Origin: Blastocatellia bacterium
GTDB taxonomy: Bacteria; Acidobacteriota; Blastocatellia; UBA7656
Direction of reading: 5' to 3'
DNA length: 64,000 nt
Assembly: GCA_963765495.1 (NCBI GenBank)
Contig: CAVXWP010000001.1
Location: 992,001 to 1,056,000, forward strand
Below are positions 13,003 to 53,379 of this stretch, piece after piece (position 1 is the first letter of the stretch; every line of letters begins with the position of its first letter). The translations under genes and the position numbers were made by a program. The notes below the pieces were generated by a model. The model saw nothing but the letters and a program-made list of their open reading frames with translations, had not been told where the DNA came from and did no database searches.

Positions 13003-13083
13003 GATTCGTGATTCGTGATTTTCAAGCAGGCAGCTTGTTAAAGACGATTTGCAAAACTGTTTGGGTCACGCATCACGCATCAC
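13003..13083. repeat. TGATNCG-armed palindromic element with conserved core (copy A)
   Basis: gattcgtgattcgtgat...tcacgcatcacgcatcac. The core aligns with copies at 15.9, 19.3 and 24.2 kb. Confidence 0.85.
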
Positions 13084-13091
13084 TTGCCTTT

Positions 13092-15872
13092 TCAGCCCGT
13101 GTTGCGAAGCCCCGCCGCGATGCCGTTTATCGTGGCCGCGAGCGCGTAATTCAATTCTTCGCCCTGCTCGCCTGCTCGCTTGCGGCGCAACAACTCGACT
13201 TGAATCAGGCTCATGGGATCGACGTAAGGGTTTCGCAATTTTATCGAACGGGCAAGGACCGGGTTGGTTTCAAGCAGACGAGTCTGCCCGCTCACCTTCA
13301 AAATCATGCGGATTGAGCGTTCGAACTCTTCGGCTATCATGGGAAAGACACGCTCTCTGAGTTTTTGATCCGAAACCAGTTCGGCATAAAGCTGCGCTAT
13401 ACCGAGGTCGGCTTTTGCAAGCGCCATCTCCATGTTTCGGATCATGTCTCGAAAGAGCGGGAACCGCACCATCATAGCCTTCAGCAGCGCCTCGTTTTCG
13501 GCGCTCTTTTGTGCGAAGCGTTCTAGCGCATAGCCTACGCCGAAATAGGCGGGCAACACGCTGCGACTCTGCATCCAGCCAAAGACCCACGGTATGGCCC
13601 GCAAATCATCGAGGCCGCGACTCTCGCCGCGTCGCGCCGGACGCGACCCTATCATCGCGTGCTTTAATTCGAGGACCGGCGTCGATTCTTCAAAGTAAGG
13701 CAGGATGTCTGGGTTGTCGTAAACCTTCTCGCGGTAGCAGGCAAAAGCATCCCTCGACATGCTCTCCATAGCCGCTTCCCATTCCTCTTTTACCCCGGCC
13801 TCCTGGTTGCCTGCTTCGGCAAGGGATTCGAGCGCGGCGGCTATCATCACTTCAAGGCTGTTTTCGGCAAGCACAGGGTCGGAGTATTTCCAGTTCAATA
13901 CTTCGCCCTGTTCGGTTATCTTCATCTGCCCGCTGAATGCCCCGGCGGGTTGAGCGAGTATCGCTCGAAACGTAGGCCCGCCGCCTCGCCCGACCGTACC
14001 GCCTCGCCCGTGAAAGAGCCTCAATTTCACGCCACACTCGCGCGCCACATCGTGCAACGCACGGTGAGCCTTGAAGATTTCCCAAGTGCTTGTAAGCATC
14101 CCGCCGTCCTTGTTCGAATCCGAGTAACCGAGCATCACTTCCTGATTGCGACCCCAGGAATCGATTAGCCTCGCGTAATCGGGCAGCGTCCAGAGTCGGC
14201 GGCATATTTCGGGGCAGTTGCGCAAATCCTCTATGGATTCAAACAGAGGGACGGGAAGGATGCCGGGGTCATCCCGGGATGAGGCCGCGACCCGCACCCC
14301 GCTCAACTCCGCGAGCCACGCCACGGCCAGAATGTCTTCGACGCATTGAGAGCCGCTGATTACATAGCTTTGTATGGCGCGCGGCGAATAATCCTTTTTG
14401 AACTCCGCCACGGCGCGCAGGGTGTCAAGCAGGTCGGTGGTTTCGGGTGAAGGCGGAGAGGGCAGATGAGAGCTTCCGCTTTCGCACAGCAGATCACCGC
14501 TTGAAAGCTCTTTTATAGCGCCTCGGTGCAGGCGGGCGTGCTGACGTATGTCGAGAGTGTGCAGGTGAAAGCTGAAGGTCTCGACCTGTCTGAGCAGAGG
14601 CGAAATCAGCAATCGGGCGAGCCTCTCTCCTTTATTGCTCTCAAGGCTTTCGCGCATGACGGACAGGTCGGCGGCAAATTCCCGCGCATCAGGATACGCA
14701 TCATCGTGCTTTGGATCGTCGAGCGTTCGCTGCAATCTGAGCAGTACGTAAACCAGAAAGCGGCGATAGGGTTCGTTTTCCCAGCCGGTTCCCGCCTTTA
14801 AATCCGTGGAGGTGATGGTCGAGGTGTAACGGTCGAGCCTCTGCTGTAATGATCTGGAAATCCCGGTCTGCATACGCGATGTGCTGAGTCTCCTGACCAG
14901 TTCTTCGGTCGCGTTTATGTAGTGACCCAGTATGGTTTCGCGGGCCATACGCAATGCCTCGCCCGTCGTTTCGGGTGTGACATAAGGATTGCCGTCGCGG
15001 TCGCCGCCTATCCACGAGCCGAACCTGACAAGCGCGGGCAGATCGCTTGCGGCAATTTCAAGCCCGAACACAGAGCGAAAGGCACTGGCTATCCCATCGT
15101 AAAGCCCCGGCAACGTGGGTATGAGCGTGGTCGGATAATAATCCAACCCCATCTTTATTTCATCGCGCACGGTGGGCCGCTGGCGGCGCACTTCGTCCGT
15201 CTGCCAGAGGGCCGTGATTTCGGCGGCTATAGCCTCTTCGTGTTCGGCGGCTTCCGATTCGGTGAGTGGAAGGCGGTCGAGTTTTTCCAGTCTCTCAGAG
15301 ATTCGCCTTCTTTTGAGCAACACCGTCCGCCTTGCGACCTCGGTCGGATGGGCGGTGAAGACAGGGATGATCTCTATCTCTTTGAGCAGCGCGAGCGCCT
15401 CTTCTGCGGATGTCCCCGCTTCCTTCAAATGCGCGAGCGCGCCGCGAAATGAACGTCTCTCAAAATTGCGATCCGGCGATAGCTCTGCCGCGCGGCGGCG
15501 GCGTTTGCGGTGATTGGTTTCAGCCAGATTGGTCAATTCGAAATAGATGGCGAATGCTTTTGTCAGATGATAGGCGCGGTCGAGGTCGGCTCGGCTGATG
15601 ATGCTTCTGGCGCGTTCGAGCAATTCGGCCTCGCCCGAATCTGCCTGACTTTCCAGGCGCAATTCCCTGTGCTGAATGGCGAGCAGCCGAAGCTCCTCGA
15701 CCGCATCAAAAAGTTTTTGCCCGCCCTGTTCCTTCAACACCTCGCCAAGCAACCGCCCAAGCGAGCGCACGTCGCGGCGCAGCGGCTTTTCTTTCTCCTC
15801 GCCCGAATCACCGATCAATTCGACCAGCCGCGCGATCTGATCTTCGGTCTCCCATAATGGTTCTGCCTTCAT
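13092..15872 (-). CDS. ppc: phosphoenolpyruvate carboxylase
   Basis: FTAHPTE, WIGGDRDGNP, VMLGYSDSNKDGG, FHGRGGTVGRGG and a GLRNTG C-terminus. Confidence 0.98.
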   Translation of the reverse strand: MKAEPLWETEDQIARLVELIGDSGEEKEKPLRRDVRSLGRLLGEVLKEQGGQKLFDAVEELRLLAIQHRELRLESQADSGEAELLERARSIISRADLDRAYHLTKAFAIYFELTNLAETNHRKRRRRAAELSPDRNFERRSFRGALAHLKEAGTSAEEALALLKEIEIIPVFTAHPTEVARRTVLLKRRRISERLEKLDRLPLTESEAAEHEEAIAAEITALWQTDEVRRQRPTVRDEIKMGLDYYPTTLIPTLPGLYDGIASAFRSVFGLEIAASDLPALVRFGSWIGGDRDGNPYVTPETTGEALRMARETILGHYINATEELVRRLSTSRMQTGISRSLQQRLDRYTSTITSTDLKAGTGWENEPYRRFLVYVLLRLQRTLDDPKHDDAYPDAREFAADLSVMRESLESNKGERLARLLISPLLRQVETFSFHLHTLDIRQHARLHRGAIKELSSGDLLCESGSSHLPSPPSPETTDLLDTLRAVAEFKKDYSPRAIQSYVISGSQCVEDILAVAWLAELSGVRVAASSRDDPGILPVPLFESIEDLRNCPEICRRLWTLPDYARLIDSWGRNQEVMLGYSDSNKDGGMLTSTWEIFKAHRALHDVARECGVKLRLFHGRGGTVGRGGGPTFRAILAQPAGAFSGQMKITEQGEVLNWKYSDPVLAENSLEVMIAAALESLAEAGNQEAGVKEEWEAAMESMSRDAFACYREKVYDNPDILPYFEESTPVLELKHAMIGSRPARRGESRGLDDLRAIPWVFGWMQSRSVLPAYFGVGYALERFAQKSAENEALLKAMMVRFPLFRDMIRNMEMALAKADLGIAQLYAELVSDQKLRERVFPMIAEEFERSIRMILKVSGQTRLLETNPVLARSIKLRNPYVDPMSLIQVELLRRKRAGEQGEELNYALAATINGIAAGLRNTG

Positions 15873-15941
15873 AGCCTGTTACCTGATCCCCTCTTAATTG
15901 AGCATAAGTGATGCTCCGGCAGATGAGCAATAGATCGAGGC

Positions 15942-16050
15942 TGATCCGTGAAAAGTGATTCGTGAAAAGTGATTCGTGACTTCCAGGCATCGCGCTTGTA
16001 AAAACCGACTTGCAAGCCTGCTTGCGTCACGGATCACGGATCACGAATCA
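15942..16050. repeat. TGATNCG-armed palindromic element (copy B)
   Basis: gtgaaaagtgattcgtgaaaagtgattcgtgac...tcacggatcacggatcacgaatca. Confidence 0.85.
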
Positions 16051-16062
16051 TTGTCCTGTCCG

Positions 16063-16090
16063 GGAATAATTTTAACCGGCAGCGGGTATA
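16063..16090 (+). promoter_or_regulatory. candidate ECF-sigma promoter
   Basis: GGAATA-N15-GGGTATA about 40 nt upstream of the ECF gene. ECF sigmas usually autoregulate. Confidence 0.4.
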
Positions 16091-18350: not shown

Positions 18351-18409
18351 CCCCATCTGAGATTTCAAATCTCAAATCTCAAATCTCAAATCCCAAATCT
18401 CGGATGGGG
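18351..18409. repeat. CAAATCT heptamer palindromic element
   Basis: ccccatctgagattt / aaatctcggatgggg inverted ends enclosing tandem caaatct units. Confidence 0.8.
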
Positions 18410-18506: not shown

Positions 18507-19274
18507 ATGACCGTTCGCGTGCTGGGTTGTTCCGGCGGGCAGGTGCCCGGACATAACCTGTCTTCGTATTTGATGAACGACTCTTTGTTGATTGACGCGG
18601 GCTCGACTACCTCGGTGCTTGATCTGGAAGAGCAGGCAAAGATCGAAAATATTCTCATCACTCACGCCCATCTTGACCACGCGGGGTCGCTTGCCACTTT
18701 GTCTGACAATATGTTCGACCAGCGCGCAGACAGCATAATCGTCTGGGGGATACGCGAGACAATCTCTGCGCTCACGCTCTCGTTTTTCAATAATGTAATC
18801 TGGCCCGATTTCACAAGACTCACGAGCCGCGACCGGCCTCACCCGGTCATAGTGCTGCGCGAGCTACAGGAAGAACGGCCTGAGACGATAGGCGATTTTA
18901 CCATCACCGCCGTTGCCGTAGCTCATTCGGTCCCGGGAGTAGCCTATTTTATCGAGCGCCGGGGGACGACCCTCCTCCACGTAGGAGACACGGGGCCGAC
19001 CGAAAGAGTCTGGCAGATGGCCCGAATGGTTGAAAATCTCAGCGCCCTGACGCTCGAAGCCTCCTTCCCGAACAGACTCAAAGAGATTGCAGCCCGAAGC
19101 GGCCACCTGACGCCGGAGACCCTGGCCGGTGAGCTTGCCAAACTCGACAGACCAGATGTCCCCGTCTATGTCACACACCTCAAACCCGCCTATCGCGATG
19201 AGATTATCGCGGAACTCAAAGAAGTGCGGGGATATTCGCTGACTCTGATGAATGACGGCGATGTGATTCGTTTC

Positions 19275-19277
<3 letters not shown>
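18507..19277 (+). CDS. class II cyclic-nucleotide phosphodiesterase (MBL fold)
   Basis: VLGCSGG, IDAG, THAHLDH, FNNVIWPDF, GDTGPT and SGHLTP. Confidence 0.88.
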
Positions 19278-19464
<187 letters not shown>

Positions 19465-19471
19465 TTTCCCC

Positions 19472-22957: not shown

Positions 22958-24225
22958 AGGTGAACTCTGTGAAGCTGCAATCATTCTTTCCAGTTGAAAC
23001 GCTCAAGATGGCGCTCGATAACGTCAGGGCGCATAAATTCAGAAGCTTTCTGACCGTGCTCGGCATAGTCATAGGCGTGGTGACGGTCATCGCGATAAGC
23101 TCTATCCTGACCGGATTGCGCGCCAATATGGTGAATCTGATAGAAGAGTACGGGACGAGCAACATCTATGCCTTTCACCTGACGACGGGGCCGCAGATGG
23201 GGCCGCGCGACCGCTCGGAGTGGAACAGAAAACCGCTCAAGCCCGAAGACGGCGAGGCCATTTTACAACAGGCCACGGCGGTCGAAGACGTGGCGAGCGA
23301 CGCTTTTACCGAATGGCGTCAGGATAAGACGATCACCTACAAGGGGCAAAACTACAAGCGCGGAAATGTGGAAGGCGTCACGGCCAACTACGGAATGATA
23401 ACCAACATAGTGATGTCAGAGGGCCGCTTCATAAACGAGATTGACGACCAGCACCGCCGCGACGTGATGGTGATAGGCGTCAACGTAGCCGAATCGCTCT
23501 TTCCTCATCAGGTACAGATCACAGGTATCAAGGTGATTATGTGGGGCAGGGAATTCGAGATAATCGGCGTGCTTGACAAGCGCAAGGGCAGCTTCTTTGG
23601 CGAAAACGAAGAAGACAATGCCGTCTTTATACCTTTCAGGACGGCCCGAAAGCTTTCGCCCGCAAGCGAGTTTATGATGCTGATCATCAAGGCGAAAAGC
23701 GGCCAGTTGCAAAAGGCCCTGAACGAAGTGGAATCGATACTGCGCCGCCAGCGCGGAGTGAAATTCAGCGATCCGAACAATTTCGACCTCTCTACAGCCG
23801 ACCGCTTTATCCAACAATTCGACTCCATCACGGGGGCAATCGGACTCATAGCCATCGCCATCTCAAGCGTAGGGCTGCTTGTGGGCGGCATAGGCGTGAT
23901 GAACATAATGCTTGTGAGCGTCACCGAACGCACAGCGGAAATAGGCATCCGCAAGGCAATCGGCGCGCGCCGCAGAGATATAGTCAACCAGTTCCTGTTT
24001 GAAGCGATGACGCTGACTTTTTTAGGCGGCTTGCTTGGCGTAGTGCTGGCTATAGGGATCAGCCGGTTAATAATGCTGCTCGTTCCATCCCTGCCCGCCT
24101 CGGTGCCGTTGTGGGCGGTCGTTACCGGGCTTACGGTTTCGATAGCCATCGGACTTATATTCGGCGTCTGGCCCGCTCGCAAGGCTTCCCGCCTCGATCC
24201 CATCGAGTGCCTCCGCTACGAGTAG
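22954..24225 (+). CDS. MacB/FtsX-family ABC permease (paralogue)
   Basis: [32 protein letters not shown] and [17 protein letters not shown]. Confidence 0.95.
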
Positions 24226-24299
24226 TGATGCGTGATGCGTGATTTTCAAGCAGGCCGCTTGCTAAAGATGGCTTGCAAGCCGGGTAAATCACGAATCAC
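24225..24299. repeat. TGATRCG-armed palindromic element (copy D)
   Basis: Begins right at the TAG stop. Its core is closest to copy A. Confidence 0.85.
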
Positions 24300-24375
24300 T
24301 CTTTGCGTGACCGCATCACTTAAGTTTTATTCGTTCCCGCCTCTTTGATAGACTGTAGCCTCTGGAGGGAAACGG

Positions 24376-25956: not shown

Positions 25957-26009
25957 GCGCGACACGGGGACACAGCGATTATGATCGCGTTCCATCTTGT
26001 GCTTGAGAA

Positions 26010-26402
26010 TCATCTGCCTTCGGCGAGCCTGTCGGGGAGCACAAATACCCTTTTTGCCGTCTCCGACTGGAGCGTGCCGTCGAGGTAGTAGGATTTCAGT
26101 ATCCCGTCTTTCCACTTCAGAAGATCGGGGTTGTTTCGGGCGAACTCCTCCCAAAGCGTCTCTCCCCCACGAAGGGCGCGCTCGTGGATCAGAAATATGT
26201 AGGCCCAGGTGATCGTTTCGTGATAGAGATCGGGTTTCCCGTGCGCGGTCGCAAATCGCTTCAGCGCTTCGGGAAATCTTGCAAGCACTTCTGCGAGCGT
26301 ATACCTGCGCAGATACAACCAGACCAGCCTGACATGGTCTGCGTGATGGAAGCTTTCGAGAGTTATATTCTCGAATCGTTCGATGATCTCTTCGTCTCGC
26401 AT
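26010..26402 (-). CDS. conserved hypothetical protein (FHHADH...YHETIT...FVLPD)
   Basis: GAGGTG RBS, an upstream promoter and His-containing motifs. Confidence 0.8.
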   Translation of the reverse strand: MRDEEIIERFENITLESFHHADHVRLVWLYLRRYTLAEVLARFPEALKRFATAHGKPDLYHETITWAYIFLIHERALRGGETLWEEFARNNPDLLKWKDGILKSYYLDGTLQSETAKRVFVLPDRLAEGR

Positions 26403-26430
26403 CGTTATCACCTCTGTCTTTATTCACTCC

Positions 26431-26470
26431 AAAAGAAAAACCGCTCACGCGATCAACTCGCGTGAGCGGT
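26431..26470 (-). terminator. intrinsic terminator in the 5' leader of the hypothetical gene
   Basis: Perfect 13-bp stem (26440-26452/26458-26470), 5-nt loop, then TTTTCTTTT on the minus strand. Confidence 0.8.
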
Positions 26471-26487
26471 CATTATTTGATGCTCTA

Positions 26488-26516
26488 AGTATATCAGCGC
26501 GATAACGAGATTTCAA
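26488..26516 (-). promoter_or_regulatory. sigma70 promoter
   Basis: TTGAAA-17-TATACT. Confidence 0.75.
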
Positions 26517-26645
26517 CAATGATTCCGAGCCTCTATTTCTCCGCGTCCCGCGTCTCTGCCTCTCCGTCTCTCTTGTCGCTCTCGGCCTCAAGTTGAGTTT
26601 GGAGCCGATTCGTGATGTAATCTAGCGACCGCAGGAGAGACAATT

Positions 26646-27349: not shown

Positions 27350-27883
27350 ATGAGCGACCAGCGCAACTGGCTTGAGCGCCTCGGAGACAAGATACCCGGC
27401 TATAGCGGATACGTGGACCGCGAGCGAAGACGCGACATCGACAAACTGCACCGCGAGCATCTGGCCGACCGTTTGCGCTCGCTAAAGGCTCCGCTTACGG
27501 ACCTCCTGCGCGAGTTGAGCAACGGCGGGCGATTGTTTGAAGTCGGCCCCGTCGATCTGGCCATAAAGAAACTCGATAAGCTTGAAAACCGCGTGCGGTT
27601 TGCCAGCTACGGCTACGGCGGTTTCTTTGATGTTGTAAAGATCGAGCAACCGCAACTGGATGCCATATACCAGTTCGATCTGGCGCTGGTCGAACGAGTC
27701 GATACGCTCGAAGCACAAGTGCGCGAGTTGCAGTCGAAGGCCGACACGGGCGAAGGTCTCAAGAAGGGAAGCTCTGAGGTGGCCGCCACGCTTGACGCGA
27801 TTGACCGCTCGTTTGAAGAGCGCTATCAGGCCATAAATAATTTTGGCCAGAGTCAGCCGCCCGGACGCCCGTTGTTTACGTGA
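27350..27883 (+). CDS. conserved helical hypothetical protein
   Basis: KIPGYSGYVDRERRRDID..ASYGYGGFFD, with a GGAGG RBS. Confidence 0.8.
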   Translation: MSDQRNWLERLGDKIPGYSGYVDRERRRDIDKLHREHLADRLRSLKAPLTDLLRELSNGGRLFEVGPVDLAIKKLDKLENRVRFASYGYGGFFDVVKIEQPQLDAIYQFDLALVERVDTLEAQVRELQSKADTGEGLKKGSSEVAATLDAIDRSFEERYQAINNFGQSQPPGRPLFT

Positions 27884-27888
27884 GCCGG

Positions 27889-27956
27889 GATGCGTGATAG
27901 CCAGATAAATGGCGGTTGACTGTGAATTATCAAACTCACGCATCACGTATCACGCA
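27889..27956. repeat. TGATRCG-armed element with an unrelated loop (copy E)
   Basis: gatgcgtgat...tcacgcatcacgtatcacgca. Confidence 0.7.
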
Positions 27957-32553: not shown

Positions 32554-32628
32554 GTGATGTGCGATACGTGATGCGTGATTCGTAAAATTTACTGCCATCT
32601 TCTGTCACGCATCACGTATCACGTATCA
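32554..32628. repeat. TGATRCG-armed element (copy F)
   Basis: gtgatgtgcgatacgtgatgcgtgattcgt...tcacgcatcacgtatcacgtatca, 1 nt after the stop. Confidence 0.8.
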
Positions 32629-32675
32629 AAGATCGCATCATCAATCTGATTCACCGGGCGCAAAAAATCGGCTTG

Positions 32676-34137: not shown

Positions 34138-34211
34138 GACAGGATGGACAGGATTAAAAGAGATTATCAAGACTCATCTCGATAATCTCTTTTAATCCTG
34201 TCCATCCTGTC
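34138..34211. repeat. perfect 31-bp inverted repeat with GACAGGATK nonamer ends, between convergent cysS and ilvE
   Basis: 34138-34168 is the exact reverse complement of 34181-34211. Confidence 0.9.
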
Positions 34212-36530: not shown

Positions 36531-36534
36531 AATT

Positions 36535-36630
36535 GGGGGTCGGGGGTCGGGGGCCGGGGGCCGGGACTGAGCCAGAGAGCAAAATACCTGTTGGATACTC
36601 TCTGAACACTGGCCCCTGACCCCTGACCCC
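36535..36630. repeat. GGGGYCR-armed palindromic element
   Basis: gggggtcgggggtcgggggccgggggccggg...ggcccctgacccctgacccc. It abuts the acs TAG and ends 4 nt before the gph ATG. Confidence 0.88.
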
Positions 36631-38579
36631 TATTCCTCTTCCTCTCTCAGTTTCTTCAATACCGAAAAGTCTTCGAGCGTCGTGACATCGCCGTGTACTT
36701 CGTCGCCCGTGGCGATTTCGCGAAGCAGGCGGCGCATTATCTTTCCGCTGCGGGTCTTGGGCAGCGCATCGGCAAAGCGTATGTCATCGGGTTTGGCAAG
36801 CGCCCCTATCTCTTTGGCAACCCATTGTCGCAGTTCTTCCTTGAGGCCATCCGTAACCGCCTGGCCCGATTCCAGTGTGACGAACGCCGCGATGGCCTGC
36901 CCCTTCAGGTCGTCCGGGCGAGCGACAACCGCAGCCTCGGCTACCTTGGGATGGGCCACCAGAGCCGATTCTACCTCCATAGTAGAGAGTCTGTGCCCGC
37001 TCACGTTTATCACATCGTCCACGCGGCCGAGTATCCAGAAGTAGCCGTCTTCATCCTTTCGCGCCCCGTCGCCCGCGAAATAGACGCCGGGAATCTCGGA
37101 CCAGTACTGTTGCACGTATCGGTCAGGGTCGCCATAGATCGTACGAAGCATGGAAGGCCACGGGCGCTTGATGACCAGATACCCGCCCGAACCGGGCGCG
37201 ACCGGCTCGCCCTCTTTTGTGACCACATCGGCTACGATGCCGGGAAAGGGGCGCGTGGCCGACCCCGGCTTTGTGGGGATAGCGCCCGGCAGCGGCGTGA
37301 TCATTATCATCCCGGTTTCAGTCTGCCACCACGTGTCTACTATCGGGCAGCGATTGTGGCCGATAACTTCTCGATACCACATCCACGCCTCGGGGTTTAT
37401 CGGTTCTCCAACCGTGCCGAGAAGACGAAGGCTCTTCATCTCGTAGCGGCGCGGCCACTGCTCTCCCCACTTCATAAATGCGCGGATTGCCGTAGGCGCG
37501 GTGTAAAAGATATTGACCTTGTGACGCTCGATTATCTGCCAGAAGCGATCAGGTTCCGGGTAGTTGGGCGCGCCTTCATACATCAGGCTTGTAGCGCCGT
37601 TTTGAAGCGGACCGTAAACAATATAACTGTGCCCCGTGACCCACCCTATGTCGGCCGTGCACCAGTAGATGTCTTCATCCTTGATGTTGAACACCCATTT
37701 GGTGGTCAGATATGTGCCTACGGAGTAGCCGCCGGTTGTATGAACCACGCCCTTCGGCTTGCCCGTGGTGCCCGAGGTGTAGAGTATAAACAGCGGGTGC
37801 TCGGCGTCGAGCGGTTCGGCCTCCGAGCGATCCGAAGCGACGGCCATCAGATCGTGCCACCAGTGATCGCGGCCCTCCTGCATCTCTACATCTGAGCCGG
37901 TTCGTTTGTAAACGACCACGTTCTTGATTGAAGGACACGAAGAAAGCGCCTCGTCAACCGTAGCTTTAAGCGGGATCTCCGAGCCTCGCCGGTAAGCGCC
38001 GTCCTGCGTTATTACGGCGGTGGCTTCGGCGTCGTTGATGCGGTCTACGAGGGCGTTTGCGGAAAAACCTCCGAAGACTATCGAGTGAGGCGCTCCGATG
38101 CGGGCGCAGGCGAGCATCGCGATGGGGAGTTCAGGAACCATGCCCATGTAGATCGCTACGCGGTCGCCGCATTTGATGCCGAGCGACTTCAGGACATTGG
38201 CGAATTTCGAAACCTCACCGAGGAGTTGCTGATAGGTGAGCGTTCTGATTTCGCCCGGCTCGCCTTCCCAGATGATAGCGGCCTTGTTTCTGCGCCATGT
38301 GGCGACGTGGCGGTCCAGGCAGTTGTAAGAGAGATTGATCTGCCCGCCTACGAACCACTTGGCCCAGGGAATCTCCCATTCGAGGACTTTATCCCAGGCG
38401 CGGAACCAGTGAAGCTCGCGCGCCACGCGACCCCAGAACTTTTCCGGGTCGGTTTCGGCTTCGCGCGAGATGCGCTCGTACTCTTCCATGCTCTTGATGT
38501 AGGCCGTTTCGCTGTACTCTCTGGACGGCTCGAAACGACGGGTTTCATTCAAGATAGAATCTATGCTCGACTGCGACAT
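36630..38579 (-). CDS. acs: acetate--CoA ligase
   Basis: [20 protein letters not shown] and [12 protein letters not shown]. Confidence 0.98.
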
Positions 38580-38654
38580 GCTCAGTAGCCTCCGATAAGA
38601 GATGTGATTGCGGAGATGAAAAGGTATCACATTGGCAGGCAGTGCCTCAATGAC

Positions 38655-38808
38655 GGGGGCCGGGGGTCGGGGGCCGGAGGCCGGTTTTATAAGGATTTTA
38701 ATCGCCTTAAATCAAACTGCATAAGACGGGCAGCGATAATAGCTCACGGATCAGATTTGCGCGCACCTGCTTATTACCGGCCCCCGACCCCTGACCCCCG
38801 GCCCCCGG
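38655..38808. repeat. GGGGYCR-armed palindromic element with a ~92-nt loop
   Basis: gggggccgggggtcgggggccggaggccgg...ccggcccccgacccctgacccccggcccccgg, abutting the TAG at 38809. Confidence 0.88.
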
Positions 38809-40461
38809 CTACTGCCCGGCGCATTTTTGCTCGATAAGGCGTTTGAGCGCCTGGGCATCCTGATCGCTCGGGTCAATCTGAAGCGCCTTTGCGGCGGCGG
38901 CTTGAGCGCCGGGGCAATCGCTCTTGAGTACGCTGATGCGACCGAGAAGCACATGAGCCGCCACAAGTTTCGGGTTCCAGAAGGCGGCAGCCTTGAGCGC
39001 GTTTGTGGCCCGGTCGAAATCGCCTCGCCTTTCATAGATGCGACCCATCAACAGATGCGCCTCATAGTTTTGCGGCGCTACCTGTAAGACCTTGCCTACC
39101 GTGGTGAGCGCCTCTTCATCCCGGCCCGCGAAGAAGGCATTGCGCGCCGCGTCCAACAACTGATCGGCCTGCGCCTGGCCCCCTGCATTTGTCGGCGGAT
39201 TCAGGCGCTCGTCCTGATCGCGTTTGTAGCGATAATAATTTGCCTTGCTGAAGGAGGTCTTCATGCGCCCGATCATCGGCGTGCCTTTTGTCTCCCATTG
39301 AGCGTAGGTCGGAAGCAGCTTCTTTGCCTGATCGGTTGCCGCGCTCGCGCCCGCCTGATCATTGCTTGCGGCGAGCGCCTTGCTCAGGATGTAATAGGAT
39401 TCACCATCCGAAGGCCGCCGCTCGATCTCGTTTTTCAACGTCTCTACCGCGTTTTTATAATCCTTTGCCAGATAGTGAGCGTAGCCGAGATTGAAGAGCG
39501 TGTCCGTGTCTCGCGGAGCCACCTCGGCGGCGGGCTTGAGGTGGTTGACCGCCTCCTCGTATTGCTTCTTTTTCAGCATCAGAACGCCGATGTTGTTGTA
39601 AACCTCATATAGCGGCAGCGTCTTAGAGAGTGTTTGCAATATCTCAAGCGATTTGTCCGTATGGTTCAGCGCGTCCTGAGCCACGCCCAGATAGAATTGC
39701 GCCTCGTCATAACGCGGGCTTTTATCATCCAACTGGCTCAATTGCTGGGCAGCCTGCTCGTAATCTCCTTCCTCAAATCGAAGGCGTCCGACCTCGAAGA
39801 TGGCCGGGGTGTAGGGGCGGCTGGTCTTGTCAGAGAACTCTTTGATCGCGCGTTCCAGAAATTCAATGCGCGCGTCGCGGTCCCGCGTCAGAGTCCCTTT
39901 GATGTAATTTTCGAACGCGCCGATGGGCGCAAGGCTCGCCTGCGTGATTATCTGATCCCGCGAATAAGGAAGGGCCGGGTTGTGTTGATAAAGTATCTCG
40001 TATGCCATCTCTCCCTGGAGCTTTTGCAGATCGATGAGCGGCCCGCCCCGGTTGAATTCGTTTCCCACGAGCCTTCCTTCATTGATATTAACCACGCGGG
40101 CCGTGATCGAAATGGTGCTTTCACGCCCTTCGCCCGCCACGCGATAAGTCCCCATTATCACGAGGTTCGCGCCCGCGCGCTCGGCTATCTTGATCATGGT
40201 CGCTCGCGTGAGAATAGCCGTGGGCGGAAGCCCTTCCTGTTTGTAGGCCACATTGCGCTCGTCGGGGCGGATGGCTACGAGGCCGGGCTTGTCGAGCAGG
40301 TCCGCGAGGTTTGCGGCAAAACTTTCGCCCACCCAGTTGTACTCGGCGCGGCCCGACAAATTTTCAAAAGGCATAGTGACGATTGTGTCGGTCCCGGCCG
40401 CAAGTCCCGTGATTGATGTGATGAGGCAGAGCATTAGGGTTGATAAGATTTGTTTCTTCAT
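38809..40461 (-). CDS. secreted TolB-N/CsgG-like + TPR protein
   Basis: Signal peptide, MPFENLSG..WVGE and many TPRs. Start at 40461 or 40473. Confidence 0.8.
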   Translation of the reverse strand: MKKQILSTLMLCLITSITGLAAGTDTIVTMPFENLSGRAEYNWVGESFAANLADLLDKPGLVAIRPDERNVAYKQEGLPPTAILTRATMIKIAERAGANLVIMGTYRVAGEGRESTISITARVVNINEGRLVGNEFNRGGPLIDLQKLQGEMAYEILYQHNPALPYSRDQIITQASLAPIGAFENYIKGTLTRDRDARIEFLERAIKEFSDKTSRPYTPAIFEVGRLRFEEGDYEQAAQQLSQLDDKSPRYDEAQFYLGVAQDALNHTDKSLEILQTLSKTLPLYEVYNNIGVLMLKKKQYEEAVNHLKPAAEVAPRDTDTLFNLGYAHYLAKDYKNAVETLKNEIERRPSDGESYYILSKALAASNDQAGASAATDQAKKLLPTYAQWETKGTPMIGRMKTSFSKANYYRYKRDQDERLNPPTNAGGQAQADQLLDAARNAFFAGRDEEALTTVGKVLQVAPQNYEAHLLMGRIYERRGDFDRATNALKAAAFWNPKLVAAHVLLGRISVLKSDCPGAQAAAAKALQIDPSDQDAQALKRLIEQKCAGQ

Positions 40462-40635: not shown

Positions 40636-40681
40636 GATTTCAAATCTCCTGACCCCACAAATCTCAAATCTCAAATCTCAG
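40636..40681. repeat. CAAATCT heptamer tract
   Basis: gattttcaaatctc...caaatctcaaatctcaaatctca. Confidence 0.7.
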
Positions 40682-40707
40682 CGGGGGTGCTGCCGCCCGC
40701 GTTACTC

Positions 40708-41524: not shown

Positions 41525-41591
41525 AGGCAAAGAGCGCCAAAATAATTCAGGCTGTCTCAGTAGGTCAGGAGTTGATTCTTTTATTCGTGCT

Positions 41592-41630
41592 CATCCGAGA
41601 TTTCAAATTTCAACTTTCAAATCTCAGATG
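41592..41630. repeat. CAAATCT-family palindromic element
   Basis: catccgagattt...aaatctcagatg. Confidence 0.7.
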
Positions 41631-41663
41631 GAAGTTGCCGCTGTACACAGGAGGACCGATCGA

Positions 41664-44126: not shown

Positions 44127-44140
44127 TCTTCGATGCGGTG

Positions 44141-44182
44141 TCTGAGATTTGAGGTCTGAAAGTTCAGACCTCAAATCTCAGA
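44141..44182. repeat. perfect 20-bp hairpin of the CAAATCT family between convergent genes
   Basis: tctgagatttgaggtctgaa-ag-ttcagacctcaaatctcaga. Confidence 0.88.
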
Positions 44183-44188
44183 TTGCTT

Positions 44189-45025
44189 TTACTGGCCGCT
44201 CAGATATTCGCGCAGGATATTGGTGAGGGCCGTCAACCACAAATGCGTGCTCCAGCGCGACAGGGTTTTCCTGACGGTTTGATTTTCCTCGTGCTGCCAG
44301 GCGTTGGATATGGCGGCCGATGTCAGACCTCCGAGAAGGAAAGATATATTTGGCTGATCGCCGCTGCGATCCCCCTGAGTTATAAACAACCGGCTCACCG
44401 CATAACCTATCTTGCCTCCCGTGCTCTTTTTGTTGGAGCGGTGATAGCGAGGGTCCTGTTTGAAGATCGTTGCGTAAGCGAATTTTTCAAAGAAGCTGTT
44501 TGTGATGCGTGTGCCAAAGCTCCGTCCCGCGCGCGCAATCGCGTCGCCCATGAAGTTGCTGAAATCATCGTCTTTAGGGCCGTTATTATCCAGCAATTCG
44601 TTGAACAGACCCGTGAAAAGCGACTGAGCATAGGGTCCGGGCGGGGCAAATGCGCTCTTCATAGCGAGGTTGAATTTTTCCCCCGCCGTCATGGGTGCGG
44701 TGCTGGCTCTGGGCGGCGGCGGCGCAGGGAGCGGTCCCGGGTTGGCGGGAACGAGTGTTTCAGCCCCATCGGGTTGTGCTTTCATCGCATCGCTGAAAAT
44801 GATGGACGCAATCATTGGTGGATTTGAAGCATTGCTCCCTTCGGGACTCGATGCCTGAACGGGAGCAGGCTCAACGGCTTTATCCGAGCCTGTGGCTCGG
44901 CTCTCTTTTGCTTTTTTGTCCGATGTGTCGCTTGCAGTCGCGGTTTGCGCAAGCGACAGCAGCAACGCGACGATAAGCAGAGAGACAAACGACTTTATCC
45001 CGGCTCGTTGAACTATGTTGAGCAT
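44189..45025 (-). CDS. exported hypothetical protein (acidobacterial type)
   Basis: Signal peptide; PMTAGEKF..., FKQDPRYHRS and AISNAW. Confidence 0.75.
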   Translation of the reverse strand: MLNIVQRAGIKSFVSLLIVALLLSLAQTATASDTSDKKAKESRATGSDKAVEPAPVQASSPEGSNASNPPMIASIIFSDAMKAQPDGAETLVPANPGPLPAPPPPRASTAPMTAGEKFNLAMKSAFAPPGPYAQSLFTGLFNELLDNNGPKDDDFSNFMGDAIARAGRSFGTRITNSFFEKFAYATIFKQDPRYHRSNKKSTGGKIGYAVSRLFITQGDRSGDQPNISFLLGGLTSAAISNAWQHEENQTVRKTLSRWSTHLWLTALTNILREYLSGQ

Positions 45026-47580: not shown

Positions 47581-47955
47581 ATGACTCAATCTTATAACGG
47601 CAACGATACACATCTGATAGACCGTTCCGAGCTTTTATTGAGCGTAGATGGAGACACGCAACTGCTTGGTGTGCTAACGAATCTTTTTCTAAAGCATTGC
47701 CCGCAACAATTGGCCGATATCGGGCGCGCAATCGAGCGGAAGGAAAGCGAGGCCCTGGCGCGCACGGCCCATGCATTGAGGGGAGGCGCGGGACACTTTC
47801 TCACTCGAACCGCTTATAAGTTATTAACCGATCTGGAAATGATCGGGAAAGAGGGACGCCTCGACGATGTTGAAGGATTGCTTGAAGAGTTAGAGGCTGA
47901 AATGCTTGCGGTCGAGCGAGAGCTATCCGCATTCGTGATAGAACAACCCGTCTGA
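47581..47955 (+). CDS. stand-alone Hpt phosphotransfer protein
   Basis: VDGDTQLL..LFL, LARTAHALRGGAG. Confidence 0.88.
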   Translation: MTQSYNGNDTHLIDRSELLLSVDGDTQLLGVLTNLFLKHCPQQLADIGRAIERKESEALARTAHALRGGAGHFLTRTAYKLLTDLEMIGKEGRLDDVEGLLEELEAEMLAVERELSAFVIEQPV

Positions 47956-48004
47956 AAAAATCTTAAGACGTCTGATTGCCTTAAGATTTTTTCGGACGGG
48001 TTGT
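47943..48004. terminator. 25-bp inverted repeat between convergent hpt and sucC
   Basis: 47943-47967 pairs with 47980-48004 (one wobble) and includes the Hpt stop codon. Confidence 0.7.
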
Positions 48005-49181: not shown

Positions 49182-49190
49182 TCATTCGTC

Positions 49191-51440
49191 CTATCTGCTG
49201 GTGGCTTTACCGCTGACAGCGCCGCGCTGGATCGTGAGGATATAGACGCCGCTTGAAAAGCTGCCGGCGTAAATGCGGTCCCGCTCGAAGGGGTCGAACG
49301 TGATCGTCCACACGCGGTTGCTCGGAAGTTCGGTGTCTATGCGTTCCCAGGTGTAGCCCTTGTCGCCCGAACGGTATATCCCACCTCGTGAATAATCCGA
49401 TACCATCATTTCGTCGGGATTGACCGGATTGATCACAACGGTAGTGTAATCGCCTGCGGGCAATCCATTGCCCCTGCGTATCCAACTCCGCCCGCCGTTT
49501 GTCGAGCGGTACACAAACTGATTTGTGCCGACGATGACCAGATTCGGGTCGCGCGGGTCCTGCGCTATCGTCTTCACAGCCATATCGCTCGGCCCCCGCT
49601 CGACCTGCGACCACGTTGCCCCTCCATTGTCAGATATGTAGAGCCCTGACTGTGTGCCCGCGAATATTTTTTCAGACATCTGTTTGTGAACCGATACGGA
49701 AAGCACTCGGCTCGCTCCGCCTACATAAATCTTTTCCCACCCCTTGGTTTCATCCGTGGTGCGATAGAGCCCGTCCATTGCGGCGGCCCACAACACGCGA
49801 TGGCCTTCGCTGTCTACGTAGCCCGACAGGTCGTCGACCTGAGTCGACAACTCAACCATAGGCGGCCCGGCAGGCTCTGCCGGTTTTGGCGCAGCTTTCT
49901 TGACGGGTGCTTTTCTGGTCGATTTTTTTGTCCGCTTCTTCGATGAACGGCGTTGATAGGCTACGGTCTGAATCTCGTACTGTTCATCGGAGGCCGGGGA
50001 ATAGACTGCGGGTGATGCCGCATCGGCGCGCCTTCTGCTTTTGCGCCTCGGTTTTGCTGCCGGTTTGGCCTTCTCTTTTTCGACGTAATTCCAGCTTGCG
50101 CCGCCGTCGCTTGAGCGATAGACGCCGCTGTTTGTGCCCGCGTATATGACGCTCGGATCATCGGCGGCCTGGAAAAAAGCGAAGACATCGCGTGTGCCAA
50201 GACCGCGCGAAGCAGACTGCCACGTCTCGCCCTTGTCTGTGGAAGAAAAGACGCTGCCCGCCTGTCCGTCGTGATAAACGCTTGCAAGCAATCGGCCTCG
50301 CTCGTTTGTTTCCGGCAGGATGGCAAGAACGTGCCTGTGAATAAATCCCGCGTTCGCGTCAGAGAAGTCATCGCCCAGGTTATTTGAAACCCGCACGCCG
50401 AAATCATCTGTTGCTATCATCACGCGATTGGGGTTTGAAGGGTGAATCACTATCGCGCGAATCACTACGTTTTTGGATGTCAACAGCATCCACCGTTTGC
50501 CACCGTCTTTGCTGCGCCAGAGCCCTTCGCTTGTCCCGGCAAATATGACATTGGGCATAGTCGGGTGCGTTCGCAGAGCGTAGGTGCGGCGAGCGCTGAA
50601 GGGTATGCCCGGCAGCTTTGCCCACTTCTCGCCGCTCGATGTCGAGCGATAGATTCCACTACAGGCATTCATATAAACGAGCGAACCGTCAGCCGGGTCT
50701 ACGCTGATCCCCATTATGTCTGAATCGTCTATCATCCCGCTCGCTTTATAGCCGGTCTGCTTCCATGTCTTGCCGCCATCCGAAGTCTTCCACGGCAGGT
50801 GGTGCGTCCCTACGTAGATGATGTCGGTGTTGACCGGGTCGATTGCAGCCGAATTGATATTGCGGATTTCTGGGTTGTCTTCGGGCGAGATGCGGGTCCA
50901 GTCTTTGCCTGCGTCTGTCGAGCGATAAACACCGTGTCGGTCTCCGACTATCAGGAAATTGGAATCCGAAGGCGCGATTGCTATGGACATGATGATCATC
51001 CCTTTTGTGTCCTTGAGCAATTGCCAGTGCTCGCCGCCGTCTGTGCTCTTGAAGATACCCTGATCCTCGACTCCCTGAGCGACCGCCCACGCGCCCGCAT
51101 ACATGATTTTGGTATTGCGCGGGTCGATGACTATGTTGTCGATAGAGAGCCCGCGTTCGCCAAGCCCCGGTTTAAGCCTCTGCCAGGTCCCGGCGCCGTT
51201 TGTAGATCGGAAAATCTGACCGTCGCTCGTGCCGAGATAAAGGAGTTCGGGGTTGTCAGGCGATCCCACCATCGCCCGCACGTCTCCGCCCCACGGCCCG
51301 GTAATCTCCCACCTGCGCACTTCGCCGTCGGAATCGGTGCTTGAGAGAACATCGTGATGTGGGGTGTCAGCCAGAACCGCCATTCCTGTCATTGAGGCAA
51401 TTAAAGTGAAGATGAGGAGGTAACGAACAGATTTAGTCAC
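49191..51440 (-). CDS. secreted BNR/Asp-box (VPS10/YCF48-like) beta-propeller protein
   Basis: Many S.DGG.TW Asp-boxes, a signal peptide and a GTG start after AAGGAG. Confidence 0.88.
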   Translation of the reverse strand: MTKSVRYLLIFTLIASMTGMAVLADTPHHDVLSSTDSDGEVRRWEITGPWGGDVRAMVGSPDNPELLYLGTSDGQIFRSTNGAGTWQRLKPGLGERGLSIDNIVIDPRNTKIMYAGAWAVAQGVEDQGIFKSTDGGEHWQLLKDTKGMIIMSIAIAPSDSNFLIVGDRHGVYRSTDAGKDWTRISPEDNPEIRNINSAAIDPVNTDIIYVGTHHLPWKTSDGGKTWKQTGYKASGMIDDSDIMGISVDPADGSLVYMNACSGIYRSTSSGEKWAKLPGIPFSARRTYALRTHPTMPNVIFAGTSEGLWRSKDGGKRWMLLTSKNVVIRAIVIHPSNPNRVMIATDDFGVRVSNNLGDDFSDANAGFIHRHVLAILPETNERGRLLASVYHDGQAGSVFSSTDKGETWQSASRGLGTRDVFAFFQAADDPSVIYAGTNSGVYRSSDGGASWNYVEKEKAKPAAKPRRKSRRRADAASPAVYSPASDEQYEIQTVAYQRRSSKKRTKKSTRKAPVKKAAPKPAEPAGPPMVELSTQVDDLSGYVDSEGHRVLWAAAMDGLYRTTDETKGWEKIYVGGASRVLSVSVHKQMSEKIFAGTQSGLYISDNGGATWSQVERGPSDMAVKTIAQDPRDPNLVIVGTNQFVYRSTNGGRSWIRRGNGLPAGDYTTVVINPVNPDEMMVSDYSRGGIYRSGDKGYTWERIDTELPSNRVWTITFDPFERDRIYAGSFSSGVYILTIQRGAVSGKATSR

Positions 51441-51615
51441 GGGGCTTTGCTCCTTACTTTGGTGATTTATTCCTGAAGAAATTCTGCGCAATCCCATTTC
51501 TTGCTGCCTGGTTGACACACTATACAATAGAAGCCTTTGCGATACCAGACTGCAACATAATCGTAACAGGTCTTTCAGGCTTCGAATCGCTTGCGCCTCT
51601 GTAGGGGCTTCATGC

Positions 51616-52128
51616 TTACTTTGAAAGCGCCTCGCGCGCTACGAAATTGAGAGCATCCTTTGCGGTGACGATACCTGTGACGCGGCCTTCGCGGGTGATC
51701 GGAATGTGGCGAAACCCTCCGACCGACATTTTGTTGAGCGCAAAGCGCAGGCTGTCTGCGGCCTCGATCGTCTCAGGCGAGCGGGTCATCACATCGCGCA
51801 CCAGCAGGTCGCTGAGATCGCTTTTTGTGCACGCAAATTTCAACAACACATCGCGCTCGGTGAATATACCGACCAGGAGTTGATCGGCGACCACCAGCAC
51901 ACACCCTGTATGCCCTTCTCTCATCAGCCGGATGGCTTCCGCCACCGAAGTATCAGGGGCGACAACGACAGGCTCCGACTGCACGATGGCGCTCACAGGC
52001 TCTTCCATAATCAGCCTCTGAAGGCCGCGAGTCGGTTGCGGCACATCGCGGTCTCTGAGCGGTTCCATGCAGTTGACGCAGCGGTCAGTGCCTTCGAGGT
52101 TTTCATCTCCACATCGCGGACAAACCAT
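51616..52128 (-). CDS. zinc-ribbon + CBS-pair protein
   Basis: CPRCG..CVNC, VGIFTERD, MTRSPET and GGFRHIP. Confidence 0.9.
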   Translation of the reverse strand: MVCPRCGDENLEGTDRCVNCMEPLRDRDVPQPTRGLQRLIMEEPVSAIVQSEPVVVAPDTSVAEAIRLMREGHTGCVLVVADQLLVGIFTERDVLLKFACTKSDLSDLLVRDVMTRSPETIEAADSLRFALNKMSVGGFRHIPITREGRVTGIVTAKDALNFVAREALSK

Positions 52129-52154
52129 CGGGATTCTCCGTATTCTCCGTATCC

Positions 52155-52228
52155 GGGTGTCAGGAGCCGGAGGTCGGGGATGAAAAAAACGTTTCTGCTC
52201 TCAACCCCGGCCCCCGGCTCCCGACCCC
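52155..52228. repeat. GGGGYCR-armed palindromic element
   Basis: gggtgtcaggagccggaggtcgggg...ccccggcccccggctcccgacccc, overlapping the korB TAG. Confidence 0.8.
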
Positions 52229-53283
52229 TAATCTATCACCCACGTATCGCCGCTGTTGATGAGCTTTTCCAGATCGCCCGGTCCAAGCTTCTCAATAGCC
52301 GATTCGACCTGCTGGGTCATCAGATCTTCGTAGGTGGGTTTTTCGACTTCGCGGAAGACGCCGACCGGAACCGGATAGGCCGGATATTCCATCCGCGCCA
52401 GCATGTAGGCGAGATAGGAATCCGGAGCCTTCTCGTTATGCGCGATCAGGTCCGATTCGCTCACGCCGTTTCCAAGCTCGACGACCTCCAGGTGCATGTC
52501 GGCGCGCATGCGGATTCCGCGATTGCGGTCGCGCCCGAATATGAGCGGCTTACCGTGCTCAAGCTCTATCATGCGGTCTTCCTTAACATCGCGCGAAGTG
52601 AACATATCGAACGCCCCGTCATTAAAGATGTTGCAGTTTTGATAGACCTCTACAAACGATACGCCTTTGTGATGCATGGCGCGCTGCACGACCGATTGAA
52701 GGTGCTGGGTGTGTGTGTCAACCGAGCGCGCCACAAATGTAGATTCGGCGGCAAGCGCGACCGAAAGCGGATTGAGCGGATAATCTATCACGCCGAACGG
52801 GGTCGATTTTGTGCGTTTGCCAAGCTCGGAGGTGGGCGAATACTGCCCCTTTGTAAGCCCGTATATCCGGTTGTTGAACAGGATGATGTTTATGTCCAGA
52901 TTGCGCCGGATCGCGTGGATAAGGTGGTTGCCGCCTATCGAAAGCGCGTCGCCATCGCCCGTGATTACCCAGACCGATAGCTCGGGATTAGACGCTTTTA
53001 TCCCCGTAGCTATAGCGGGCGCGCGCCCGTGTATCGAGTGGAACCCGTATGTGTTCATGTAGTACGGGAAGCGACTCGAACAACCGATGCCGGAAACGAA
53101 AACCGTGTTTTCTCGCTTGATGCCAAGCTCGGGCATCACCTTCTGTATCTGGGCGAGTATGGCGTAATCGCCGCAGCCCGGACACCAGCGAACTTCCTGA
53201 TCGGAAACGAAATCTTTTCTCGTCAGCTTGACCGGAGGCTGCCCGCCGTTTCCGCCATTCTTATTCTCGATATTAGTGCTCAT
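52228..53283 (-). CDS. korB: 2-oxoacid:ferredoxin oxidoreductase beta subunit
   Basis: WCPGCGD, SGIGCSSR, HSIHGRA, GDGDALSIGGNH and YGLTKGQYSPT. Confidence 0.95.
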   Translation of the reverse strand: MSTNIENKNGGNGGQPPVKLTRKDFVSDQEVRWCPGCGDYAILAQIQKVMPELGIKRENTVFVSGIGCSSRFPYYMNTYGFHSIHGRAPAIATGIKASNPELSVWVITGDGDALSIGGNHLIHAIRRNLDINIILFNNRIYGLTKGQYSPTSELGKRTKSTPFGVIDYPLNPLSVALAAESTFVARSVDTHTQHLQSVVQRAMHHKGVSFVEVYQNCNIFNDGAFDMFTSRDVKEDRMIELEHGKPLIFGRDRNRGIRMRADMHLEVVELGNGVSESDLIAHNEKAPDSYLAYMLARMEYPAYPVPVGVFREVEKPTYEDLMTQQVESAIEKLGPGDLEKLINSGDTWVID

Positions 53284-53314
53284 CTTTTTTCCCTTCGATG
53301 CTCTCTAGCCTGAT

Positions 53315-53379
53315 GATTTGAGATCTGAAATCTCGAATCTCAAATCTTAATTCCAAATTTCAAATCTCAGATTTGAGAT
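53315..53379. repeat. CAAATCT-family heptamer element between korA and korB
   Basis: gatttgagatctgaaatctcgaatctcaaatc...ttcaaatctcagatttgagat. Confidence 0.8.

Follow-up and report, generated by a model that had tools for sequence, protein, structure and literature searches.

In the available portions of three published studies, arrays of short tandem repeats are described from several groups of bacteria. In Geobacter metallireducens, Aklujkar et al. (2009) distinguished three classes of paired tandem 7–9-mers on opposite strands; these sites hold 3–5 tandem units, vary in the distance between partners, lie both between and within operons, and were read as binding sites for IHF/HU global regulators (PMC2700814). 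Rehm et al. (2015) described heptamer arrays of 2–26 units, GGGAATC in Xanthomonas and GGGGAYT in Nostoc, with 70–75 convergent pairs per Xanthomonas genome, most of which lie at most 50 bp from a stop codon or overlap it (PMC4692102). TAACTGA direct repeats occur in Beggiatoaceae, cyanobacteria and Bacteroidetes, and MacGregor (2015) pointed out that heptamer arrays containing stop codons stop all three frames, so that only the ends of open reading frames (ORFs) can overlap them (PMC4679880). Both of the latter studies report that heptamer repeats are over-represented in bacteria (PMC4692102, PMC4679880). Here, we analyse a 64-kb stretch of chromosome from a Blastocatellia bacterium (Acidobacteriota; assembly GCA_963765495.1, contig CAVXWP010000001.1, positions 992,001–1,056,000), called the window throughout, in which 15 intergenic repeat elements, most of them palindromes armed with tandem 7–9-mers, were counted between 13.0 and 53.4 kb, and we compare these elements with the described systems and with similar loci in other genomes.

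Heptamer repeats are also known from heterocystous cyanobacteria, as STRR repeats with unit sequences of their own, and the repetitive extragenic palindromes (REPs) of Escherichia coli likewise lie near stop codons. To our knowledge, bacterial heptamer repeats, and rRNA intervening sequences together with their S23p ORFs, have been noted for decades without an accepted explanation. The intervening sequences of 23S rRNA genes, found in Coxiella, Leptospira and others with or without an ORF, are regarded as selfish and horizontally moved; the available text of Warrier et al. (2016) describes that of Coxiella as having a 28-bp stem, within which RNase III cuts, and a loop that carries an S23p four-helix-bundle ORF (PMC4990558). 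For REPs, GTAG or CGTC head tetranucleotides define two superfamilies, in the part of the source available (PMC3733652).

The preliminary description of this DNA proposed an undescribed dispersal mechanism for the elements. Their design is already on record in Geobacter (PMC2700814) and Xanthomonas (PMC4692102), and the window elements are a further instance of it, not a new kind of system. The features of the Xanthomonas and Geobacter type are present, namely tandem 7–9-mer arms (11–12 of 15 elements), a convergent reverse-complement partner and proximity to stop codons. As in Geobacter classes 1–3, several families occur in one genome as opposite-strand pairs of tandem 7–9-mers, and the class 2 unit TCTCCGTS[Y] resembles a ATTCTCCGT array in the window, whereas the units and the phylum differ and the available text says nothing of stop-codon position or cargo genes (PMC2700814). 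The G-rich Xanthomonas and Nostoc units recall the GGGGNCN family of the window; in its available text that study deals with one unit family per genome, with an emphasis on G-quadruplexes, whereas the window has several families; that text draws no connection with cargo genes or intervening sequences (PMC4692102). Like the TAACTGA repeats, one heptamer of the window is common to distant phyla, but the TAACTGA repeats are direct, lie mostly just upstream of starts and include one inverted case in the available account, whereas most of the window arrays are inverted and lie behind stops (PMC4679880). The terminal inverted repeats of the window elements form a long stem, as in 23S intervening sequences, but the elements lie between protein genes and have no TIGR02436 or S23p ORF. 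Finally, they resemble REPs and MITEs (miniature inverted-repeat transposable elements) in being short, extragenic, palindromic, dispersed, divided into several families and often placed behind genes, and differ from them in having arms of tandem units and in lacking a GTAG/CGTC head, a visible target-site duplication and any association seen with a transposase.

The preliminary description had listed about 16 elements of one design. Its coordinates and units were correct, as judged by tandem-repeat (TRF) arrays and direct reading of the sequence, and 11–12 of the 15 elements that we count consist of tandem 7–9-mers, a loop and the inverted tandem. By contrast, E3 and E12 carry their tandem array as the loop of a 13–15-bp stem, E11 is not predicted to fold, and a GACRCGGR pair was rejected. 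At least four families are present: TGATNCG (E1, E2, E4, E5, E6 and E7), GGGGNCN (E9, E10 and E14), GAGATTT/CAAATCT (E3, E11, E12, E13 and E15) and GACAGGATG (E8 alone). TRF placed heptamer arrays at 13003, 13066, 15942, 16027, 18365, 19275, 19438, 24225, 27936, 32554, 32605, 36535, 36609, 38654, 38777, 40658, 41600, 52205 and 53323. Arm lengths are 20–35 nt among the inverted repeats detected, with stems of ~15–35 bp and arms that start, as read, with TGAT, GGGG, GAGATTT or GACAGG; as regards possible G-quadruplexes of G-rich units, E9 and E10, read directly, have at least four G-runs of 4–5 each. The elements are as follows, each with its z score for folding.

E1, 13003–13083: TGATNCG arms with a conserved core loop, 8 nt past the PEP carboxylase stop (minus strand) and ~50 nt ahead of a response-regulator start; z −1.2.
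E2, 15942–16050: TGATNCG arms with the core loop, in the divergent region between the PEP carboxylase and ECF sigma factor genes; z −6.3.
E3, 18351–18409: GAGATTT/CAAATCT family, 15-bp stem CCCCATCTGAGATTT with a loop of (CAAATCT)x5, 19 nt past the DUF1223 stop; z −6.2.
E4, 19275–19468: TGATNCG arms with the core loop, 17 units in the left arm and 4 in the right; the first TGA is the stop of an MBL-fold gene, and the stop of a TPR gene (minus strand) lies 3 nt beyond the right arm; z −7.8.
E5, 24224–24321: TGATNCG arms with the core loop, beginning at the TAG that ends a MacB/FtsX permease gene, with a carboxyltransferase start 55 nt downstream; z −2.9.
E6, 27879–27956: TGATNCG arms with a different loop and a stop TGA (27881–27883) within the stem; z −3.2.
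E7, 32554–32641: TGATNCG arms with a short loop, 1 nt past an aldehyde dehydrogenase stop; z −5.4.
E8, 34138–34211: two copies of GACAGGATG together with a unique stem; the arm of 35 nt is 97% complementary, and the convergent genes on either side are cysS, at 2 nt, and class IV aminotransferase, at 10 nt; z −14.
E9, 36533–36631: GGGGNCN arms touching the TAG stop of acetyl-CoA synthetase (minus strand), with a HAD gene start 3 nt further on; z −5.6.
E10, 38652–38809: GGGGNCN arms with a 90-nt loop, touching the TAG that ends a TPR gene on the minus strand; z −6.4.
E11, 40636–40690: (CAAATCT)x3 direct array in a divergent region, without a predicted hairpin; it may be a degraded E3-type copy; z 0.08.
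E12, 41591–41631: small hairpin of the GAGATTT family, 66 nt past the recO stop; z −2.9, with 5 of 200 shuffles folding equally well.
E13, 44137–44187: GAGATTT arms, perfect over 20 nt, between convergent genes with stops at 10 nt and 1 nt; z −7.6.
E14, 52160–52228: GGGGNCN arms touching the TAG that ends the minus-strand gene for the beta subunit of 2-oxoacid:ferredoxin oxidoreductase; z −5.5.
E15, 53316–53379: GAGATTT/CAAATCT family, in the 98-nt spacer between the oxidoreductase alpha and beta genes, 2–12 nt past the alpha stop; z −3.1.

Such arrays are far more frequent in the window than expected by chance. The window contains 27 period-7 arrays, compared with a mean of 5.5 (maximum 12) over 40 dinucleotide-preserving shuffles, and 6 strict inverted tandem pairs, compared with 0 across the 40 shuffles. 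The fold stability of 11 of the 15 elements was better than that of 200 out of 200 shuffles, whereas E1, E5 and E12 were weakly above shuffles and E11 was not above them. E1 folds weakly because the free fifth position of its unit mismatches between the arms. Between their arms, E1, E2, E4 and E5 have a common non-repeat core of ~45 nt (74% mean column identity), in two subtypes, E1 with E5 and E2 with E4, which are 93% identical over 27–29 nt. This common core in four elements indicates that they are dispersed copies. In E1 and in E5 the core reads the same way along the plus strand, whereas the genes upstream of these two elements lie on opposite strands; hence the loop does not follow the sense transcript.

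Within the window, most elements sit tightly behind stop codons, as had been proposed. All 11 stop coordinates given in the preliminary description are ORF ends (10 of these ORFs have Pfam support, and 44189–45025 has none), and 10–11 of the 15 elements have a stop at a distance of at most 10 nt; E9, E10 and E14 each touch a TAG. In spacers between co-directional genes, the stop is nearer than the next start in nine of nine elements, with a combined P of 4 × 10−4 under uniform placement per spacer, or 9 × 10−3 when the 15 nt before starts are forbidden, so that docking exceeds random placement within spacers. E2 at 15.9 kb and E11 at 40.6 kb lie in divergent regions, as had also been noted. 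The MBL-fold protein encoded upstream of E4 ends in ...GDVIRF, and this C-terminus is collinear with 39 homologues, so that E4 begins exactly at the ancestral stop and the protein has been neither shortened nor lengthened. The last MBL-fold codons (19260–19277; GAT GTG ATT CGT TTC) resemble TGATTCG, yet encode a conserved GDV(I/L/F)xF; this likeness may be due to chance or to microhomology that favours insertion. TGA microhomology as an insertion target was unsupported, as the stops found 0–10 nt before TGATNCG arrays were TAA in 8 cases, TAG in 4 and TGA in 2. Separately, a 25-nt palindrome without tandem units (47943–48004; 96% complementary) overlaps the stop of an Hpt gene and lies 17 nt from the sucC stop, the two genes being convergent; plain palindromes too therefore sit at stop codons in this genome.

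For comparison, genome contigs were scanned with three TGATNCG units, which yielded at least 123 loci (1.03 Mb) whose record titles name many phyla. Paired TGATNCG copies in the same orientation occur in at least five phyla (Chloroflexota, Acidobacteriota, Verrucomicrobiota, Pseudomonadota and Desulfobacterota). Among the matches listed, 239 arrays are TGATNCG-like; neighbours within 700 nt are convergent in 49 cases, divergent in 5 and on the same strand in 8, and the loops vary between genomes. The core of E1, E2, E4 and E5 was not found among the matches listed for these loci (1 Mb). The design is not confined to one unit: the matches listed include 77 inverted and 18 direct tandem pairs with a gap of less than 100 nt, and 97 inverted pairs of period 7 or more with ~47 units, and when the window is included there are at least 561 heptamer arrays with at least 247 distinct units. 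The multi-family system of one design is thus far more general than the window. In a Blastocatellia metagenome-assembled genome (MAG; L049), arrays lie within 90 nt of rpsJ, rplW, rpsC, rplP, rpsN and rpsH, and in a Nitrospirales MAG (L072), hairpin elements surround nuoA, nuoB and nuoC, with arrays again at distances of up to 90 nt from these genes; arrays beside ribosomal protein and nuo genes are evidently tolerated inside essential operons. In a 1,151-nt record of Desulfococcaceae HSG8 (L085), TGATGCG arrays of 10–13 units alternate with a repeated segment of ~260 nt, the record being partly a run of N.

Enrichment at stop codons extends to these loci in part. On crude ORF maps, not annotations, the 53 hairpins among the matches listed present 49 sides that face a stop and 27 that face a start; 37 of the 49 stop-facing sides lie within 10 nt, compared with 11 of the 27 start-facing sides (Mann–Whitney P = 6 × 10−5). 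In 23 of the listed cases the stop codon lies inside the arm. For stop-containing arms among these matches, 29 of 32 stop-facing and 7 of 19 start-facing sides are within 10 nt; by contrast, the corresponding numbers for stop-free arms are 8 of 17 and 4 of 8, which is not significant. Tight docking is therefore solid in the window, whereas in other loci it is significant only for stop-containing units, and spurious ORFs that run into arrays with stops in all frames may inflate the count there. The idea that the arms serve as an all-frame stop cassette is true for TGATNCG and GAGATTT and fails as a general rule: among the matches listed, 27 other hairpin units have stops on the incoming strand only (4), the outgoing strand only (4), both (3) or neither (16).

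Arms of the same kind also enclose genes. TIGR02436 proteins are Avd-like four-helix bundles and GxxExxY proteins are PD-(D/E)XK nuclease-like; both are large families for which we know of no function. In a Caldilineaceae locus (L015, 9485–9985), a 166-aa TIGR02436 protein (58 bits, cut-off 24) is encoded between TGATNCG arms in the spacer between two ABC ATPase genes, and the first arm unit provides the upstream stop TGA. A Thermoflexus locus (L076) has two TIGR02436 genes, one in TGATTCG arms and the other in GGGGAGC-type arms; at 5842–6267, the TIGR02436 gene lies in TGATNCG arms, of which the first unit is the upstream TGA stop. In L040, a TIGR02436 gene has a left arm only. When 18 TIGR02436 genes, 14 of them plasmid-borne relatives, were compared with 400 ORFs from the same repeat-rich loci, flanking inverted repeats exceeded the 95th percentile of the controls in 12, with a period-7 autocorrelation of 0.7–0.95 in most. 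These 12 bear out the preliminary description, in which arms around such genes had been mentioned.

One of the 12 links the arms to rRNA. The element on plasmid AZO_p2 of Azospirillum lipoferum 4B (L131, record 14001–15145) lies within a large-subunit (LSU) rRNA gene (510 bits, model positions 877–1670), and its stem is made of tandem heptamers (CAGAGGA/CGGATGA and complement) around a four-helix-bundle-like ORF, identified by a tblastn match only. Its position inside the LSU rRNA gene makes it a true 23S intervening sequence with a tandem-heptamer stem. A Pfam scan was applied to 76 of 89 small ORFs adjoining arrays; 12 had been scanned before, and L076:5797–6285, which is antisense to the TIGR02436 gene, was left out. 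The scan yielded one PF13366 protein, the TIGR04256 GxxExxY protein of L034 (4764–5138; 126.6 bits), whose gene lies between inverted CACGAATA 8-mers, in agreement with the preliminary description, which names arms around this family too. Other array-flanked ORFs among the matches listed are housekeeping genes, for example clpP, rpsC, nuoB, nrdR and fur. No literature was found that links TIGR02436, PF05635, S23p, GxxExxY or PF13366 to flanking repeats. What is new in this analysis is the occurrence of TGATNCG in at least five phyla, the arms around TIGR02436 and TIGR04256 genes, and the arms as the stem of an rRNA intervening sequence.

A few observations concern the plasmid-borne relatives. 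In cyanobacterial plasmids, four-helix-bundle cassettes lie inside CRISPR–Cas operons, in the cas10/cmr3 gap of L124 and in the cas6/cas4 gap of L125 and L129. A strong hairpin precedes a four-helix-bundle gene on a plasmid of Gemmatirosa kalamazoonensis (L134, 224–320); its sub-threshold Rfam matches to plant and viral microRNA precursors were dismissed as chance matches to a long stem. A tblastn search of plasmids with the Thermoflexus four-helix-bundle protein gave no matches.

On balance, we lean towards reading the window elements as cargo-less relatives of intervening-sequence-like cassettes, which would be co-transcribed within operons and probably cut or stabilised as RNA, and would not act as terminators. 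The established features on which this reading rests are the build of the elements, their excess over chance, their location, the rule of orientation, the common core, the link to cargo genes and the case in rRNA; from these we infer transcription, RNase III processing by analogy with intervening sequences, any role for the cargo proteins and a mode of spread. The window copies would stand to the gene-bearing cassettes in about the way that intervening sequences without an ORF, or MITEs, stand to the forms that carry genes. Lying directly behind stops, also within operons, they would probably be transcribed together with the genes. Their stems of ~15–35 bp would most likely either be cleaved by RNase III, for which the stems of intervening sequences are substrates (PMC4990558), or protect the upstream 3′ end. 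The elements are unlikely to terminate transcription, and E15, which separates the genes for the alpha and beta subunits of a single enzyme, was counted as non-polar.

Several results weigh against the cassette relationship or its proposed RNA role. Sense and antisense folds are about equally stable (12 versus 13), which gives no hint that the sense RNA is under selection; selection on sense RNA through G–U pairs was rejected on the same count, and equal folding of both strands would equally fit a role at the DNA level. An mRNA 3′-processing code, as suggested in the preliminary description, stays conjectural in the face of these numbers. Neither TIGR02436 nor TIGR04256 cargo genes occur within the window, and no gene-bearing copy with the arms and core of the window is known in the window or among the matches listed for the other loci. 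Clear inverted arms were not found at 6 of the 18 TIGR02436 genes, and TIGR04256 was seen only once among the matches listed. In the Caldilineaceae locus, an empty element (3356–3453) and the cargo element (9470–10021) have similar arms and dissimilar inner ends, and derivation of the former from its neighbour by internal deletion was rejected for this reason. At the four copies that have the common core, no visible target-site duplication was noted, although the tandem arms could conceal a short one. To these are added the crude ORF maps and the stop-free arms of the other loci, described above.

Strong hairpins straight after stop codons might instead be transcription terminators built from repeats, bidirectional where they stand between convergent genes, as E4, E8 and E13 do. 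E13 fits the simple terminator pattern, alone among the 15 elements, but five or more T in 10 nt were found in only 2 of ~17 sense-direction tails, and loops of 20–90 nt are untypical of terminators. Moreover, E15 separates two subunit genes of one enzyme, arrays adjoin nuo and ribosomal protein genes in other loci, E2 and E11 lie in divergent promoter regions, and the same arms enclose genes in other genomes. At 26439–26471 the window has a canonical terminator, complete with T-run, so the ordinary type is in use here. Termination is thus an unlikely function for the elements. It is still less probable that they are classical REPs or MITEs moved by a known transposase (RAYT/IS200-like or DDE) encoded elsewhere in the genome. 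Their extragenic, palindromic and dispersed character, their several families and the core conserved in four copies would suit such an origin, but a family scan of 50 window ORFs detected no transposase or integrase families, as the preliminary description had stated, and no RAYT transposase gene among these ORFs, from 64 kb of the genome. In addition, no target-site duplication is visible, the arms lack the GTAG or CGTC head defined in the available source (PMC3733652), and such arms were seen to enclose TIGR02436 and TIGR04256 genes rather than genes for transposases.

Two further accounts appear very improbable, to a similar degree. Local growth of simple-sequence repeats by replication slippage, without mobility or function, would agree with the unit number, which differs between the arms of a single element, from 2 to 17 (E4), and with the over-representation of heptamers in bacteria given in the available texts (PMC4692102, PMC4679880). 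However, slippage leaves unexplained the close inverted partner (77 inverted versus 18 direct pairs among the matches listed), the orientation rule (49 versus 5, likewise among those listed), the 45-nt core at four sites and the arms around genes. The elements could also be putative DNA-binding sites for a nucleoid or global regulatory protein of the IHF/HU type, as proposed for the Geobacter sites in the available part of that study (PMC2700814); the paired arrays of a short unit, the location of E2 and E11 in divergent promoter regions and the equal folding of both strands point in this direction. Most copies, though, lie at 3′ ends rather than at promoters, and ~47 units in 1 Mb, among the matches listed, would demand many binding proteins.

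A wider proposal, which we consider doubtful, is that heptamer palindromes, TIGR02436 cassettes, GxxExxY cassettes and 23S intervening sequences form one cross-phylum mobile family that settles in places which are transcribed but non-coding, either right behind stop codons or in expendable rRNA helices, in which one cargo protein or both would act in trans on the tandem-unit arms and the window copies would be non-autonomous passengers. If true, it would explain the heptamer repeats of bacteria and the origin of intervening sequences. The architecture common to heptamer repeats, intervening sequences, TIGR02436 and GxxExxY makes their relation testable. The elements also matter for annotation, as they overlap or supply stop codons and sit in essential operons.

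Two further repeat features of the window were set apart from the 15 elements.

Unpaired 9-mer array, 52133–52152, minus strand: ATTCTCCGT x2.2 adjoining E14, with ACGGAGAAT twice in the minus-strand reading.
Doubtful GACRCGG pair, 25959–26560 (25959–25977 and 26540–26560): encloses a 133-aa ORF at 26010–26411, minus strand.

The 9-mer array puts GGAG 7–8 nt ahead of the ATG of a CBS-domain gene (minus strand), and the left arm of L124 (GGAGATA units) likewise ends immediately ahead of the start codon, ATG, of its four-helix-bundle gene. A number of arrays may thus also serve as ribosome binding sites. The GACRCGGR pair was not counted as an element, as it has two imperfect copies per side, 8-mer versus 7-mer, 560 nt apart. 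Its enclosed ORF has 949 homologues; 119 listed relatives are 59–70% identical, and its relatives are labelled Blastocatellia, Pyrinomonadaceae and Terriglobales. As a conserved hypothetical without a Pfam or NCBIfam family, between weak arms, it was rejected as a cargo gene. Directly upstream of it, on the minus strand, a hairpin of canonical terminator type at 26432–26478 has a 14-bp stem followed by TTTTCTTTT, and may be a leader, an attenuator or the end of a small RNA.

The window has a G+C content of 0.50–0.58 and carries ordinary chromosomal genes, including those for PEP carboxylase, cysS, acetyl-CoA synthetase, sucC and 2-oxoacid:ferredoxin oxidoreductase, together with PadR regulators, MacB/FtsX permeases, TPR proteins and a permease of the ADOP family (TIGR03434, 882 bits), a set that points to Acidobacteria. 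Near relatives of two window proteins are labelled Blastocatellia, Pyrinomonadaceae, Terriglobales and Binatia. In the window, no Rfam family attained its gathering score. A perfect 33-nt tandem duplication (57194–57259) spans the start of the gene for a 1,842-aa RHS-repeat protein (57216–62744). From 56 kb on, the G+C content falls to 0.50 and small ORFs have sub-threshold Pfam matches only, a combination that recalls polymorphic toxin loci.

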